Part shown: positions 2,755-53,167 of the stretch, in pieces
How positions within the stretch are numbered: position 1 is the stretch's first letter
Layout of the letters: each line of letters opens with the position of its first letter
IMG/VR virus record: IMGVR_UViG_3300032293_000679
DNA: 64,000 bases
From: an uncultured virus (IMG/VR IMGVR_UViG_3300032293_000679)
Lineage: Duplodnaviria; Heunggongvirae; Uroviricota; Caudoviricetes
Direction: 5' to 3' (one strand)
Program-made: the position numbers and the translations under genes
The notes under the pieces: model-generated
Databases searched by the model: none
What the model was told of the DNA's origin: nothing
The model's input: the letters and a program-made list of their open reading frames with translations, nothing else

Positions 2755-5700
2755 TTATTTGAATAATCCACGGAAGATACCCCTCCACTTAGTTACTGCA
2801 CCCATGATTTCTATGTACGCTGGAGTCTTAACTTCTATTATAGCAAACTGACCGATAGGTTGTTGACCTGATGCCTTGGCAAAAGCCACAAAGAAGTTGT
2901 CCCATCTTTTCTCGGCTAGCGTGCCTAGATGAGGGAAAGAAGCATCACTCACAACACTCATAGAAACTGTTGGGTCTGTGAATGAATATCCAGTACCAAC
3001 AGCTATGGCTGTGCTTAAAAACCTCTTATCATTTAGTACTCCCTTGTTAGCTACAAACTTGATATTGAACTCTTGTGAGCTACCAAAGAAGCTTAAAGTA
3101 GCCCCAGTAAACAATTCATACACAGAACTATTATAAGATGCCATAGATAAGTTATTAAACTGAAAGTATCTCAAAGGGTTTATCGTAACAAATGTAGAGA
3201 AGTTATTTACATTCTCATTATACATTAATGTGTACTTAGACGACTCATTTCTAAATGTCATAATCTGAGAGGCGTACTTTGGGTCGTACACCTGTATCAT
3301 ATCGTACTCCTTGGTTACACTATCTATACCCAAGAAGTAAGTTCTCATTGCTTGTTCATCACTAAGAATCCTGATACCATCAGCACCATACCTGCAATAC
3401 TTTTTAAATGCAGGAGAGAACCAATACATCTGAGAGTTACCATTATTATTCTGACCTACATACACACAGGTTTGGAAAGTACTGCCATAGGTTGAGATGA
3501 TGTTCTCCCTTTGATTGTATACGCCACCTGTACCTACTAAGATTTCTCCACCACCTTGAGTTCCTATTGCGACATCTGATAAGTAAGGCAATACGGACAC
3601 TGCTCTTGGTTGAACAGATACCATGTAGTTATTTACATCACGCAAAGCTACTATCTCTCCGTTCTTGGTATCTAAATCTCTAAAGTCAAGTGCATTAATC
3701 TTTCTATAAAAGTCCTGCACAGAATTAATAGGCTTTTGTTGAGAGTAATATATCCTTGACACAAACTTAGATTCAGAAGGTACGCTAGAATCGTATGCTT
3801 TTATAGGCAGAGGATACTGAGCTGAGTATGCTTCATCGTAGTTAAATTGTTCTTCAGCTACCTCATCTATTGTTTTAAATGGAAATAAATAACTTGATAT
3901 ACTTTGCCATCCTTGTAAGTTCCTTGTGGGAGCTACATCTTCACTCTGATTACAATAAAAAAGCTGAGTGTTTATTTTGTTTTGAGCGTAATACGAAATG
4001 AAAGAGGACTTCACAGTTCCATCTTTATAATCACTCCAATATCTAACTTTCAATATATTCTTTTGAGTATAGGTATCCCCACCAAAAACATTAATTCCAC
4101 TTAAAACATTAGGACTAAAATCATTTACAGATACATAAGTTCCAGTAGGAACAATGTCAATAGATTTAATATCATACTGTTCGCCTGTTATGACTCTTTT
4201 GTATTGAGCCATATAAACTCCATTATCAAGAAAATTAGTCTGACCACTTATATAATTATCAAAACCTAAAGACATATTTTCCATAGAACCAGATGCGCCT
4301 ATTGAAATATTAATGCTCGGTTGATAATACTCATCAGTAGGTAATCCACTAATCTTTGAACTTAATATCCTAGTACTATCTGGATTATAATCTCCAAGTG
4401 CTTCGTCAAAATTTACATATCTACCATCTGTTACATTTACATCTATTTGATCTGGAACTGAGGAGTAAACCTCTCCAAAATATTCTGCATAACTAGCCTG
4501 AAATGTTGACCCACTTTTATATTCGCTTATATTATTTAAAACAATAGAAGGAGAGAAGTATGTTACAACATCTCCTGCGCTTGGCTCTAATGTTACCACC
4601 CTAGTATCATGCGAAAAGAACATTCCAAATCTTCTTTGTATTGCTGTACTATTATATTTACTATTATAATCTCCAGAAAAAGTTGGAATACTAGCATAGT
4701 ACCCTGCCCTAAAAGCAGTTCCAGACATATCATCTGCTGTAAATAAAACCCCAGAACCTAAAACACTTGGATTACAAACGCCTCTCCATACCGAAATACC
4801 ATTTAATTGGCTTTTAATAGAAGAAATATCTAAATTGTTTATTACTGCGTAATATACAAGCGTGTTATATGTATTTTTATCTGTTCCACTTGTGTATATT
4901 CTAGCGTCATAAACCCCTCCTATTTGATTTTGAAAAAACTTGCGTTCTCCAACAAAGTAAGGGCTAGATATATATCCATTCTTATAATGAAAACGAACAA
5001 AGAATGCGTATGTTTCATTGAACATATAACCAACCTTGTTGGCACAGTTTTCTGGTAGTTGGTACTCTCCAACTTTAGTCCCTGTAAAATCTAAAGATTT
5101 AGAATCAATAGCTACTGCTTGAAAGTTTGTATCTGAACTCACATAAGCTTCAACTATATTTCTAAAAATAGACCTTATGGTAACACAAACTTGATCGCCT
5201 GCGGCTAGTTCTGCATTAACAGAAATTGATTGAATTGGAAGTTGAGCGCCTAGTGTATAGTAAACTTCTTTTGAGACTAATGTTTCAAATGTAGAGCTAG
5301 CGGCTTTTTTTCTTTTTATTTCCATTAAAAGTGGATTAGCCTCAAAAGAACCAACCACTAAAACTGAAAAATTAAAATACAAATTATAACTACCAGCTTG
5401 TAAAGAAGAGACAGTCCAAATTCCTGTTGTTGGGTTGTAATTTGGATTTGATACACTTTGATTTGAAAGCTTTAATGTGTAAGTAGTTGCTACAAAGGGA
5501 GGGGGCGTTGGATACCAAGGAGTGTCACCAACAAGCCCTGTAGCGCTATTATTTAAAACAGTATTATTAATACTTGATAAATACCCAACCCCTCCCATTG
5601 AGTAAGTACCCTGACTAATACTTGCTGCTGACGCTAAAGCTGCTGTAGTAGAATCGTCAGCGCCAAGATTTACATTGGCTATATTGAATCTATTCTTTTT

Positions 5701-48569: not shown

Positions 48570-48693
48570 TGGAGAAGACAAGATTTGAACTTGTATATAC
48601 TTCAGATACTATCTGCTGGATTGTATTAATAAGGTAAAGTATATTATATCCAGTTACATACCCTATTAGCGTCTACCATTCCGCCACTTCTCC
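48570..48693 (-). ncRNA. tRNA-like RNA (Leu-type D-arm, intact T-arm) with anticodon/variable arms replaced by a ~70-nt insert
   Basis: GGAGAAG/CTTCTCC-A acceptor, TGGCGGAATGGTAGACGC D-arm, ACAAG-TTCAAAT-CTTGT T-arm; 124 nt, no canonical anticodon loop. Confidence 0.7.
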
Positions 48694-49425: not shown

Positions 49426-49464
49426 ATTATTTTCTTTTTTAATGTTATGGTACAAATATACAAT

Positions 49465-49616
49465 GTACTCAAATCAAGTACAAGTACTCATTTCATATAC
49501 TTGTACTCATTTTATATACAAGTACTCATATTAAGTACATTTACACTATTCAATATTTGTACTCATTTTACATACTTGTACTCATTTCAAGTACTTTTTG
49601 TACTCATTTTGAGTAC
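49465..49616. repeat. Array of GTACTCA boxes with ~19-bp period
   Basis: Direct copies at 49465, 49484, 49503, 49522, 49559, 49578 and 49600; inverted copy at 49610-49616. Confidence 0.85.
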
Positions 49617-50104
49617 AGACCCCCCTCTAGAATCAGGCATCTCCAGCCATTCCTTCTTAATATTATTAAGCCAGCAGTAATATCGGTAGATATAAACAGG
49701 TTGTTGATAGATATGTAAGGGTATAAACTTACTTCACGCAATGCTGCGCAAGTGTATAGGCTGACTATAGAGAAGGATGTCTGGTTAAAAAACCATACTG
49801 CGTATAGAAATAGGGGTATTATGCATTATAGGGGTGGGCGTGAAATAAAAGTTAGAGGTATTGTACTAGAGAGGGGTAATACCACCAATAAAATAATAAT
49901 TTTATACAATAAAAAAACATCCCTGCCCATCTCTTACCCTACCCCTATCAAGGTTAAAGGCTGTTTATGTATATACTCTACTTATTTAGATTTAGTCTAA
50001 TTATAAACTTGAATTGAATTTAACCTAACAAGTGTTAGTTAGGTAGCTAGCAAAGTTATCCCCTATCTTATCCCCTAAACAATTTTAATACCTTATTTGA
50101 TAGC

Positions 50105-50284
50105 TTGTTTAGAATCATTCTAAATAATTTGCTTGTCTATTTTTTTAGACAAGCTGTCTAATTTTATAGACTCTGATTATCAGCACTTTACATAAATTTG
50201 TCTAATTTTATGGAATTATTACTCATTACAAATACTATGCCAAAGTATTTTTATACTTGTATTGCTTTGATTATCAGCACTTTG
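50105..50284. promoter_or_regulatory. Cluster of palindromes and IHF-like sites in the strand-switch region
   Basis: Palindrome 50105-50127; inverted repeat GCTTGTCTA-T6-TAGACAAGC 50131-50154; 16-bp direct repeat TGATTATCAGCACTTT at 50174 and 50268. Confidence 0.6.
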
Positions 50285-50346
50285 CACTTTTTTATGGTTT
50301 TTTGGCATACCAATTGTACTATGTATACCAAACAAACACAAACAAT

Positions 50347-50796
50347 ATGAACACTAACAAAACAGCTGAAAGATTACAAGGTAACAAATCAGCATCAAAC
50401 AAAAAAGCTAATTTATTGAATGAAGTTTTAATTAACAAAGTTACATCTAAAGTAATTAGTAAGCCCTTAAAAGTTGAAACCAAAGACGGAGTAACATACG
50501 TAGCTGAAAAGACAAGCGGTAAGCAATTGCAAGCCCTAAAAATTGAAGCTAACAGAAACCACAAAACAGAGTTACAAAGTCTTTCTTTTTGTATTTCGCA
50601 GCTAAACAAACACGGACAAGAATACTTAAAAGGCTTAAAATTAACTATTGAGCAAGTGACACCAAAAAACATTTGCCCCTTCTTGACTGAGAGCGAAAAG
50701 AAAAGACAAGCCAAGAATGGCAATAAGTTCAGCCTATGGCTTGTAGAAAATTTAGCCAAGCGATATGCTGAGAGCCTTAAAAAGGCTAAAAAATAG
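50347..50796 (+). CDS. First early gene, basic hypothetical protein (149 aa, start MNTNKT)
   Basis: A-rich leader ACAAACAATATG; Lys-rich; directly upstream of the large structured RNA. Confidence 0.75.
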   Translation: MNTNKTAERLQGNKSASNKKANLLNEVLINKVTSKVISKPLKVETKDGVTYVAEKTSGKQLQALKIEANRNHKTELQSLSFCISQLNKHGQEYLKGLKLTIEQVTPKNICPFLTESEKKRQAKNGNKFSLWLVENLAKRYAESLKKAKK

Positions 50797-51460
50797 GCTA
50801 TAAATAGCCAATAAATAGGGCTTAAAGGCTTGAAAACTAGAGCCTTGCAAATATCGGATATTTGCCCTATTTCAAAAGCAATCAAAATAAAAGTACTTTT
50901 TTGTATCAATTACGAAATGTAGTTAGTTTCCAAGCGAAACGCGATACACTAAAAAAAAGTATTCAATAAAATTGAGCGCTCAGTTCCTTGAAATTTAGTT
51001 CCGTCCCTTGTCTTCATTGTATGCTTTATACAATGTTTGAACGAATACAAAAAAGACAATATAAACGAGCCTATTTTGTAGGCTTGAAAATAGGCAATAA
51101 AAATAAATTAGCAACTTGTTTTATTGTCAATCCACTTCATGGGTGAAGTGAGCCGTTATGTGCAACATTGCAAACTGGACTTATTCGTTATGAATGTTGT
51201 AACTCGCAAAAGTAAACTACGAAAGTAGAGAACGGCTACCGAGTACAATTTAGACAGTCTAAATGTGTACAAGGTAAAGTGCAATTCACAATCATCTTAT
51301 GTCTTCTTGTGTACCCTCAACACGCTATCAAAAAGCGTGTGTACAATCTTATGAAAGAGTGTTTGCTTACTATGTGTACGAGATGCAAACTGAAAAAGAC
51401 AGGCACAAATAAGGGAAAAGGAAAGGTATTCAGGCAGGTTCAATTCCTGCCATCCCTTCA
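50796..51460 (+). ncRNA. Large, densely structured non-coding RNA ending in a tRNA-like T-arm domain
   Basis: About 20 helices in nested multi-way junctions, GAAA-capped hairpins, no credible ORF; 3' GGCAGG-TTCAATT-CCTGCC closed by AAGGGA/TCCCTT. Confidence 0.7.
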
Positions 51461-51484
51461 AACAAACCAACAAATATAAAACAT

Positions 51485-51649
51485 ATGAAAAGAGTATTAA
51501 ATGTAGTGCTAGCCTCACTTATTGCGCTAGCTTTTATGTCAGCCGTGACAATTTTAACAGGTGAAAACTCAGCACAGCAAATGTTCAGCTTTGCAATCTG
51601 CTTCACCTCAACAGCGTTATTCTATATCCTAGTGCCTAAAACCAAGTAA
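51485..51649 (+). CDS. Small 2-TM membrane protein (54 aa)
   Basis: Hand translation MKRVLNVVLASLIALAFMSAVTILTGENSAQQMFSFAICFTSTALFYILVPKTK; AAAACATATG start context. Confidence 0.65.
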   Translation: MKRVLNVVLASLIALAFMSAVTILTGENSAQQMFSFAICFTSTALFYILVPKTK

Positions 51650-51733
51650 AAACATATGGAAAACACAGACGAAATCTATTCAAACCTTGTAGGCGAGGTT
51701 GAAATTCCAAAGCAAACTAAAAAGTAAAAACAC

Positions 51734-51862
51734 ATGAAAAAAGAAGAAAGAATATTGTTGCTAGTGCTATGCGCTTGCATCATTGGTTTATACCTGCACA
51801 TATGGTTGTGCCTGCCCTTATTGTTAGGTGCAATATCAATATACATATTTTCTAAAATATAA
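51734..51862 (+). CDS. Small membrane protein (42 aa)
   Basis: MKKEERILLLVLCACIIGLYLHIWLCLPLLLGAISIYIFSKI; AAAAACACATG start context. Confidence 0.55.
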   Translation: MKKEERILLLVLCACIIGLYLHIWLCLPLLLGAISIYIFSKI

Positions 51863-51877
51863 AAACCAATAAACATC

Positions 51878-53167
51878 ATGGAAACAAAAGAGATGCTAGA
51901 AAAATTTACTTTCAGCAAAATTAGAAAGGTTATCTTGCTATCAAGAGACAGAAAGTTTGACTACAAAGCATTGCTTGAAAAGATTGTTGATGATAACCTA
52001 GACATTGACAATGTAATTGTAAGTATTGGCGACCACTATTGTACTGCTGATGAAATTATCAGTGACGATGTATTTTGTCATGAAGGGTACTACTACAGTA
52101 ATGATGACTATGTTATTACAGATGATACAGCCAATGCCATACACATAGATGATGCGCACTTCTGTCAGAGAACAGAAACATACAGAGAGAACGAGACTGT
52201 TGTTGTGCATATTGGTAGGCATACAGAACAGTGGAATGAGGATGATGCGGAGTTAAACTTGCATAGGTTTGAAGGCGAATACTATGACCACGATGCACTT
52301 GACCGCAATAACCTAGTAGTCATGTATAACGGTGTAGTTGAATATCATGATGATGTGTACTATTGGGAGTCAGATGGCGAGTACCACTATGACTCAGAAG
52401 AAGATGATGAAGAAGAGTATGTAAGAGATTATCACTACAGTGGGTACTCAGATTCAAACCCTTCTGTATATTTCACAGACAACCCGACAAGATTCATTGG
52501 CTTTGAGATTGAGAAGGAAGACAGAGGTGTTAAGGAGAGTATGTTTATAAGTGACTTTGAATACGCTTGTCCTAAGTGGAAGAAAGAAAGAGATGGCAGT
52601 CTTGATGGTAGCACTGGCTTTGAATTGATAAGCCCTAAGTTTGAACTCATACCAAGCGAGATTAAAAATCATATTGAAAGCAATGCCACACTATTGCACC
52701 ATGTGAATGCTAGTAAGTCCAACGCTTGTGGTGGTCATATCAATGTCAGTGAGTTTGGTATGAGTGGCGAAGAATTGTTTGACAGTATCAAGGGGTACAC
52801 ACCTCTATTCTATGCCCTATACTACAAGCGAGTTGACAAGAACTATTGCAAGGGTAAAAAGAATGATGACCTCAAGGGGGATAACGAAAAGTATCAAGCA
52901 ATACGCATCCACTCAAACAGAATAGAGTTCCGTATCGTAAGTGCAGTACCTAACTTGTCAACTTTAGTATGGCGTTCAAGACTTATTGAATACATACTCA
53001 ACAATAAGACAGACAATATAAGAGATGCTTTCTTCAATGTCAATACAAGCCCTCTCAAAGACTTATTGCTTGAGATGTACCCTAACAACTTCAACGAACT
53101 TGTTGACAGACTAGCAGAGTTCTCTCTAAAATTTGAAAACATTGACTTAAACAATAACAACAACTAA
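51878..53167 (+). CDS. Amidoligase (COOH-NH2 ligase, glutamine-synthetase-like fold) with acidic N-terminal region
   Basis: IGFEIE, ERDGSL, GFELISP, CGGHINVS, KYQAI and IEFRI motifs. Confidence 0.85.
   Translation: METKEMLEKFTFSKIRKVILLSRDRKFDYKALLEKIVDDNLDIDNVIVSIGDHYCTADEIISDDVFCHEGYYYSNDDYVITDDTANAIHIDDAHFCQRTETYRENETVVVHIGRHTEQWNEDDAELNLHRFEGEYYDHDALDRNNLVVMYNGVVEYHDDVYYWESDGEYHYDSEEDDEEEYVRDYHYSGYSDSNPSVYFTDNPTRFIGFEIEKEDRGVKESMFISDFEYACPKWKKERDGSLDGSTGFELISPKFELIPSEIKNHIESNATLLHHVNASKSNACGGHINVSEFGMSGEELFDSIKGYTPLFYALYYKRVDKNYCKGKKNDDLKGDNEKYQAIRIHSNRIEFRIVSAVPNLSTLVWRSRLIEYILNNKTDNIRDAFFNVNTSPLKDLLLEMYPNNFNELVDRLAEFSLKFENIDLNNNNN

Follow-up and report, generated by a model that had tools for sequence, protein, structure and literature searches.

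A covarying non-coding RNA with a tRNA-like 3' end, next to the first rightward gene of a divergent crAss-like phage

The DNA analyzed here, hereafter referred to as the window, is a 64,000-nucleotide (nt) stretch of an uncultured virus (IMG/VR record IMGVR_UViG_3300032293_000679), and the subject of this report is one part of it, positions 50796–51458 on the plus strand, which holds no open reading frame (ORF) and is predicted to encode a structured RNA ending in a tRNA-like domain. Judged by its gene content, the source is an uncultured, divergent freshwater crAss-like phage: a protein of 1437 amino acids (aa) matches the Crassvirus muzzle protein (Pfam crAss_MUZ, E 5e-44), and a BT4734-type primase, a portal and a terminase-like protein are also encoded (Pfam/PHROG). 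The window shows no DNA similarity to GenBank phages (blastn), and against the same phages (tblastn) its terminase-like protein has no match and its conserved 429-aa protein one remote match. Few known phages are as abundant as the crAss-like ones. Genes run leftward up to ~48250, and small rightward genes follow from 50347 on. An earlier note on this DNA, written by a model from the letters alone, had placed the RNA second in an early operon; the map position fits, as the RNA directly follows the first rightward gene, while early expression is presumed. The rightward features are:

50347..50796, plus strand: gene for a 149-aa basic protein, first of the rightward unit, directly 5' of the RNA
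50796..51410, plus strand: non-coding RNA body, made up of local multi-helix domains in a row
51411..51458, plus strand: tRNA-like 3' domain of 48 nt, an acceptor-like stem and a T-arm
51485..51649, plus strand: gene for a 54-aa hydrophobic protein, its start codon 27 nt past the tRNA-like domain
51878..53167, plus strand: conserved 429-aa gene, used as the anchor for fetching related loci

The stretch is ORF-free, as first described, and reassigning stop codons opens no usable frame. On the plus strand, the standard code leaves at most 87 codons open in a row, and reassigning any one stop extends this to no more than 112. Genes of the window make use of all three stops (23 TAA, 4 TAG and 3 TGA among 30 ORFs). 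Some crAss-like phages reassign stop codons, which counts for reading the stretch as a protein-coding region in a changed genetic code, or else as a decayed gene. A changed code is rejected on this stop usage and the lack of an open frame; in addition, relative to the closest related sequence, the metagenome contig L007, insertions and deletions do not come in multiples of three and substitutions are paired across stems. I regard a coding origin as scarcely credible.

The dense folding claimed earlier also holds against dinucleotide shuffles, with a minimum free energy of -176.4 kcal/mol for the plus strand compared to -137.0 +/- 5.6 kcal/mol for the shuffles (n = 20, z -6.98). The minus strand of the stretch gives z -4.29, and five 665-nt coding windows of the same phage (12 shuffles each) give z +0.48, -0.09, -0.94, -3.56 and -0.93. 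A comparison to known RNA classes, which had been proposed with the original description, identified no Rfam 15 family, including GOLLD, ROOL, OLE and raiA: across the 64-kilobase (kb) window nothing matched at the gathering score, and positions 50000–52000 searched at E <= 10 gave chance-level matches and a 17-nt match of the transfer-messenger RNA (tmRNA) model to the T-arm only. The RNA region of related loci, described below, likewise has no Rfam match (14 loci at gathering score; 4 loci at E <= 1), and ARAGORN predicts 0 genes in the window.

The RNA body is predicted to consist of the following elements, all on the plus strand:

50796–50809: hairpin
50813–50872: three-way junction
50892–50963: domain
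50983–50994: unpaired 12-nt motif, GTTCCTTGAAAT
51008–51059: domain
51067–51085, 51093–51128 and 51133–51150: hairpins
51151–51237: domain
51243–51270: hairpin
51300–51401: domain

The helices listed in the earlier note are all present at their places, with the exception of ATTTAGAC/GTCTAAAT, whose arms lie one base apart, so that only a shorter stem is formed. The motif GTTCCTTGAAAT does not behave as a repeated promoter, being unique in the window, with 8 other matches at chance level.

The contig L007, in which the downstream 429-aa gene is 92% identical, carries the RNA of the window (nhmmer E 7e-61). The first 110 nt and the last 300 nt are ∼79–80% identical between the two, and the last 170 nt are almost without differences; the middle third has diverged and aligns poorly, and two hairpins of the window are replaced by one. 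Covariation, one of the checks suggested with the original proposal, was found in this pair: RNAalifold identifies 24 pairs changed on both sides, compared to 9.6 on average and 14 at most in column shuffles of the same alignment (n = 30). By helix there are 3 such pairs in 50825–31/50840–46, 5 in 51133–39/51144–50, 1 in 51151–57/51231–37 and 2 in 51243–47/51266–70, counting helices in unshifted register only, since register-shifted values are inflated and were left out. Natural variants in contigs of four other public DNA runs show the same kind of change, with G50827A and C50844T linked in contigs of two runs, and the stem CACTTCA/TGAAGTG converted to CATACC/GGTATG. Judged from these paired changes, the base pairing of the window RNA is under selection.

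At the 3' end, the T-arm reported earlier is present (GGCAGG/UUCAAUU/CCUGCC, 51433–51451), stacked on AAGGGA/UCCCUU (51411–16/51453–58). The domain thus comprises a 6-base-pair (bp) acceptor-like stem, a 16-nt linker containing GGAA, a 6-bp T stem (51433–38/51446–51) with a 7-nt loop, UUCAAUU, and a bulged A at 51452, and possesses neither an anticodon arm nor an encoded CCA. It is identical in L007, no variant of it is listed across the four public DNA runs, and a search for its pattern in IMG/VR gave no match. It does not qualify as a tRNA, with no ARAGORN gene, no match to RF00005 and only 16 nt between the acceptor-like strand and the T stem. A tmRNA was also considered and rejected: the acceptor strand lies 37 nt upstream (51411–16) rather than acceptor strands being formed by the two ends of the RNA, the acceptor pairs are A-U, A-U and G-C without a G3.U70, the tmRNA model RF00023 is limited to the T-arm (model positions 347–363; 9.9 bits, E 0.27), ARAGORN finds no tmRNA, and no tag frame is shown. 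The tmRNA_permuted model reaches 12.8 bits (E 8) on 50000–52000.

What the domain resembles structurally is a 't-element', with two stacked 6-bp stems and a UUCAAUU loop 27 nt before the next start codon. The acceptor/T-arm stack is the part of a tRNA recognized by RNase P, RNase Z and the CCA-adding enzyme. A comparable case is said to be MALAT1-mascRNA, where a tRNA-like fold in a longer nuclear transcript is reportedly a proposed or known cut site of RNase P and RNase Z.

In order to look for the same arrangement elsewhere, I gathered 163 loci from IMG/VR and JGI metagenomes via the 429-aa protein. In one clade (clade B), where this anchor protein is 44–47% identical, an ORF-free gap lies at the equivalent position, and iterative nhmmer united 35 of the 163 loci, corresponding to 25 distinct sequences. 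The distance from the upstream stop codon to the end of a tRNA-like domain is 562–736 nt in 19 of the 21 distinct loci that have the domain; the remaining two are a cut contig (L034) and a locus with a doubtful overlapping ORF call (L093). All 19 have a small, strongly basic gene, then the gap, the tRNA-like end, and the next ORF shortly after. The window shares with clade B the position after a basic ORF, the length, a 48-nt anticodon-less tRNA-like end and a 16-nt linker, and the motif GTTCCTTGAAAT is also present in two related loci (L004 and L006).

The tRNA-like 3' end is the most conserved feature of these gaps. It is 47–49 nt long in clade B (up to 63 with an inserted hairpin), and consists of a 6–7 bp acceptor stem, a small hairpin with a UGGA loop, ∼4 bases, and a 5-bp T stem with the loop UUCGAUU. 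Across 21 sequences, 94.4% of cells are paired and 9 of 12 pairs are changed on both sides, with a covariation of 0.49 compared to 0.18 in shuffled alignments (0/500 reach 0.49) and 1–5 pairs in slid controls; the first acceptor pair is unpaired in 14 of the 21. When 126 further loci were searched with a covariance model of the domain (R1), 2 matched strongly and 3 weakly; the domain is therefore confined to clade B. The true tRNAs and the tRNA-like domains of these phages have the same 3' trailer (CTAAC...) and no encoded CCA.

In 5 of the 19 clade-B gaps there is also a second tRNA-like minihelix, 8–21 nt after the upstream stop codon. Minihelices of 42–43 nt occur at L004 2728–2769, L092 2446–2487, L052 1455–1497, L157 5410–5452 and L161 5315–5356, with a 7-bp acceptor stem, an 11–12 nt linker starting (A/T)TGG and a T-arm with the loop TTCGAYT. 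Their predicted folds define a second class of anticodon-less tRNA look-alike, shorter than the first, and some lie far away from the large RNA. A third tRNA-like type lies at the 5' edge of the gap in L001 (1924–1980), L108 (1533–1589), L106 (1648–1702) and L103 (∼880–940), and is built of a 7-bp acceptor stem, a single long hairpin and a T-like arm whose loop reads ATCGAAT or ATCGAAC.

The body of the relatives' RNA is also structured. A core model (R2), the RNAalifold structure of 223 positions in 10 full-length sequences of one sub-clade, and therefore self-derived and self-favouring, has 41 pairs with 95.1% of cells paired, of which 22 are changed on both sides, compared to 9.8 in shuffled alignments (0/500) and 4–6 in slid controls. 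The order of the conserved blocks is kept across the 10 sequences and on into the 3' domain. The RNA evolves fast.

These alignments also bear on the possibility that the element acts as DNA, for instance as an origin of replication, a site for packaging or an array bound by protein. Such a role would suit a place in the control region between divergent gene blocks, ∼1.2 kb from an iteron-like array (49459–49617). In the core, 40 cells are G.U and 4 are A.C, and pairing is 95.1% on the plus strand compared to 86.2% on the opposite one; the excess of G.U over A.C favours a plus-strand RNA over a DNA element or an RNA from the other strand. The window stretch, too, folds better on its plus strand, and it contains no internal direct repeats. 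I consider a DNA-level element, which these results disfavour, very improbable.

In the same core, inspection by eye of alignment A7, columns ∼176–208 (e.g. L024 ∼1285–1315), shows a frame that crosses the conserved segment and its hairpin loop and reads (A)N[IV]S[AT]K L[TN][LF], ending with UAG or UAA at one column in the 7 sequences inspected; L004 keeps the stop despite a lost base pair. This recalls the tag frame of a tmRNA, and could be chance in a conserved RNA. Elsewhere in L024, positions 4227–4259 match the Rfam DUF805b RNA motif (45.8 bits, for a gathering score of 35.6).

The gene directly upstream of the RNA encodes a protein of isoelectric point (pI) 10.0, with 30 K+R and 13 D+E residues. 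It has no Pfam or PHROG match; ten relatives (61–81% identity) are found in a large protein collection, and none in IMG/VR by single-sequence or alignment searches. Homologues precede the gap in L007 and in a further locus, L008. The AlphaFold model of the 149-aa protein is helical from residue 58, with an overall predicted local distance difference test score (pLDDT) of 71, and models for two of the upstream-protein families (pLDDT 71 and 91) are both of small helical proteins. Each of the 22 upstream ORFs judged credible (19 from clade B and one each from the window, L007 and L008) has a pI of 9.6–10.2, while the median is 5.0 for 128 downstream ORFs of 70–160 aa from these loci, 16% of which reach 9.6. 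The constant placement of a basic protein directly before the RNA gives circumstantial support to its being an RNA partner.

Its sequence features show the locus to encode a genuine non-coding RNA, conserved and structured, with a tRNA-like module at the 3' end. The explanation that I favour, and hold to be probable, is that the stretch encodes a ∼660-nt plus-strand RNA that is cut from an early operon transcript at its tRNA-like end and possibly acts together with the basic protein. Positions 50796–51458 would be transcribed within the rightward, presumably early, transcript, directly after the small basic protein gene. The tRNA-like end would then work as a t-element, where host RNase P and RNase Z cut, freeing a stable RNA body from the downstream mRNA and giving both molecules defined ends. 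The RNA body would act in trans during host takeover, probably bound by the basic protein encoded upstream, and its role seems to me most likely that of a scaffold or decoy ribonucleoprotein. The bracketing minihelices in 5 of the 19 gaps, together with the t-element-like arrangement, are the basis for reading the RNA as excised from the operon transcript.

Alternatively, the stretch may hold a series of separate small RNAs, or of hairpin domains that act in cis, one of these a degenerate tRNA gene. Every helix with covariation support is local, spanning ∼100 nt or less, and no long-range pairing, tertiary pairing or pseudoknot was found in the stretch, which may therefore hold several RNAs or domains instead of one. 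The exchange of two hairpins for one in L007 and its poorly aligning middle third fit such a mosaic, as do the extra tRNA-like minihelices inside or at the start of related gaps, and the failure of the core model to find sub-clades other than its own. A mosaic does not readily account for the total length held at 562–736 nt in 19 distinct loci, nor for the block order kept from the core into the 3' domain. Furthermore, the stretch is not divided by promoter- or terminator-like sites above chance (18 promoter-like sites, 19.1 expected). I consider a mosaic array unlikely, though deserving of serious attention.

Besides the locality of the helices, several results weigh against a single conserved RNA that is excised and bound by its neighbouring protein. 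Among public sequencing runs, no RNA run is listed for the stretch. Apart from L007, the window RNA has no blastn or nhmmer similarity to any of the gathered loci. R2 scores only 7.2 bits (E 0.15) on the window, and among 94 loci it finds its own 10 seeds and no other sub-clade. The best match of R1 on the window, 51390–51464 (13.2 bits, E 0.017; 1.6 kb searched with filters off), has the correct architecture, yet its score is within the chance range, as chance matches of R1 reach 15 bits on 9 kb of the Cellulophaga phage phi14:2; a search of the whole window with default filters does not find the domain. The models thus do not firmly join the window RNA and the clade-B RNA by common descent. 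The acceptor-like stem of the window, being invariant in the available sequences, has no covariation support of its own, and the L002 and L021 lineages have the T-loop AGCGAAA or AGCGATA, without the two U's of a T-loop. In L008, which has a homologue of the basic protein upstream, the 786-nt gap cannot be aligned, has a z of only -3.37 and contains no recognizable tRNA-like domain. The upstream proteins belong to at least three families without detectable similarity (profile comparisons give probabilities of 4.4%, 0.3% and 0.2%), the models of two of them have no PDB match at E <= 0.001, and their basic charge may reflect a role unrelated to RNA.

The early long non-coding RNAs of phi14:2 are the closest precedent in kind for the window RNA. 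In the report of Drobysheva et al. on that phage, two long intergenic regions among the first early genes are described as transcribed above most genes, and the long non-coding RNAs as present from the earliest time point, persistent, and of undetermined function (10.1101/2020.03.07.982082). Both phages are crAss-like and have long intergenic stretches close to the first of their rightward early genes; phi14:2 differs in having no blastn similarity to the window and only chance-level matches to R1. With the phi14:2 gaps assigned to the published RNAs by gene order only, the gap at 2905–3589 shows no excess structure (z -0.32).

In another such gap within the early region of phi14:2 (L164, KC821624), an unannotated tmRNA gene was identified at 4031–4502, underlying two tiny annotated minus-strand ORFs. 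ARAGORN predicts the tag GSSVQKLAMVA, and the Rfam match covers the full model with G3.U70 present (46.0 bits, for a gathering score of 47; E 7e-16). From gene order, this tmRNA may be one of the published early 'long non-coding RNAs'; the portion of the report at hand contains no mention of it (10.1101/2020.03.07.982082). phi14:2 also has a tRNA-like T-arm at 1826–1849.

In size and in kind of neighbour, the window RNA also recalls GOLLD and ROOL, described by Kretsch et al. (2025, PMC12286853) as densely structured phage RNAs of 550–800 nt, beside or fused to tRNAs, and of unknown function. All are phage-encoded, of similar size, densely structured and associated with tRNA. In contrast to these, the window RNA has no Rfam 15 match, the attached element is a truncated tRNA look-alike and not a tRNA, and the long-range architecture for which such RNAs are called 'ornate' was not found.

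For the 3' domain itself, the nearest counterparts are the t-elements of plant mitochondria, proposed signals for RNase P and RNase Z (Forner et al. 2007, PMC1920247). Both are tRNA-like folds inside a longer transcript, at the border of two functional RNAs. However, t-elements belong to eukaryotic organelles, and the window domain lacks the anticodon arm entirely and has a cleavage that is predicted only.

The other counterpart is the tRNA-like domain of tmRNA. Mycobacteriophage DS6A encodes little more than this domain, and a molecule of this type inhibits tmRNA, perhaps via titration of SmpB, according to Hudson et al. (2014, PMC4131195). The likeness lies in an anticodon-less tRNA-like domain joined to a structured RNA of several hundred nucleotides, of which phage examples exist. 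The differences lie in the acceptor stem, which in the window is closed locally and lacks G3.U70, and in the window RNA being unseen by ARAGORN and by RF00023 over its full length.

This comparison raises the possibility that the tRNA-like domain alone is functional, as a decoy that titrates SmpB, the CCA-adding enzyme or a tRNA-directed defence nuclease, behind a 600-nt leader. The tmRNA counterpart does look like such an anticodon-less module of acceptor, D-like part and T-arm, no other part of the RNA is as well conserved in either lineage, and with the DS6A remnant and the tmRNA gene of phi14:2 there are phages that carry such molecules, the latter in a crAss-like early region. This explanation leaves aside that the RNA body itself is under selection for structure. 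Nor does it agree well with the missing G3.U70 and terminal acceptor pairing, with a tmRNA match confined to the T-arm, or with the two lineages that have lost the T-loop consensus, and I judge it improbable.

Literature searches found no description of the window RNA; a catalogue of 10,006 candidate viral RNAs, built on IMG/VR (PMC10690425), might hold fragments of the relatives' RNA. The window RNA is new relative to Rfam 15 and to the literature searched, while early long non-coding RNAs as such have a precedent among crAss-like phages.

Around the RNA, the region between the divergent gene blocks contains small leftward ORFs, the iteron-like array and two copies of a 22-nt motif:

50171–50192 and 50265–50286, plus strand: the two motif copies, 91% identical (direct repeat family D7), just 5' of the first rightward gene

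By position only, this pair is a candidate promoter or operator for the rightward transcription unit, which is presumed to be early. The array at 49459–49617 consists of at least 5 direct repeats of 19–20 nt (TTGTACTCATTTTATATAC-like, mostly with 19-bp spacing), and looks like replication-origin iterons or a regulator binding array. On the minus strand, 48570–48693 holds a tRNA-shaped gene of ∼124 nt missed by ARAGORN and Rfam, with an acceptor pair GGAGAAG/CTTCTCC, a class II-like D-arm, a T-arm ACAAG-TTCAAAT-CTTGT, and a long insert in place of the anticodon and variable arms. Downstream of the RNA, neither Pfam nor PHROG has a match for the 429-aa protein, whose invariant motifs EIEKE, GGHIH and R-x-E-F-R (window and relatives, alignment A2) may resemble those of glutamine-synthetase-type amidoligases.

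Few large RNAs combine extensive structure with an unknown function, and new classes such as GOLLD, ROOL and OLE have each been informative. One well-studied marine crAss-like phage makes very abundant, unexplained early non-coding RNAs, and the locus described here adds, in about two dozen related contigs, an RNA that covaries and is clearly bordered, with a tRNA-like handle and a protein that may be its partner. Going further, and only tentatively, one could imagine a new class of phage ribonucleoprotein, in which a ∼600-nt RNA would be excised from the first early transcript by host tRNA-processing enzymes at flanking anticodon-less tRNA look-alikes, coated or folded by a fast-evolving basic protein, and directed at the translation or tRNA machinery of the host during takeover. 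In crAss-like phages it would then correspond to GOLLD and ROOL, and it would explain what the phi14:2 early RNAs are. The locus makes it possible to test whether tRNA look-alikes punctuate phage transcripts, whether the RNA and the basic protein form a particle, and what its target in the host may be.

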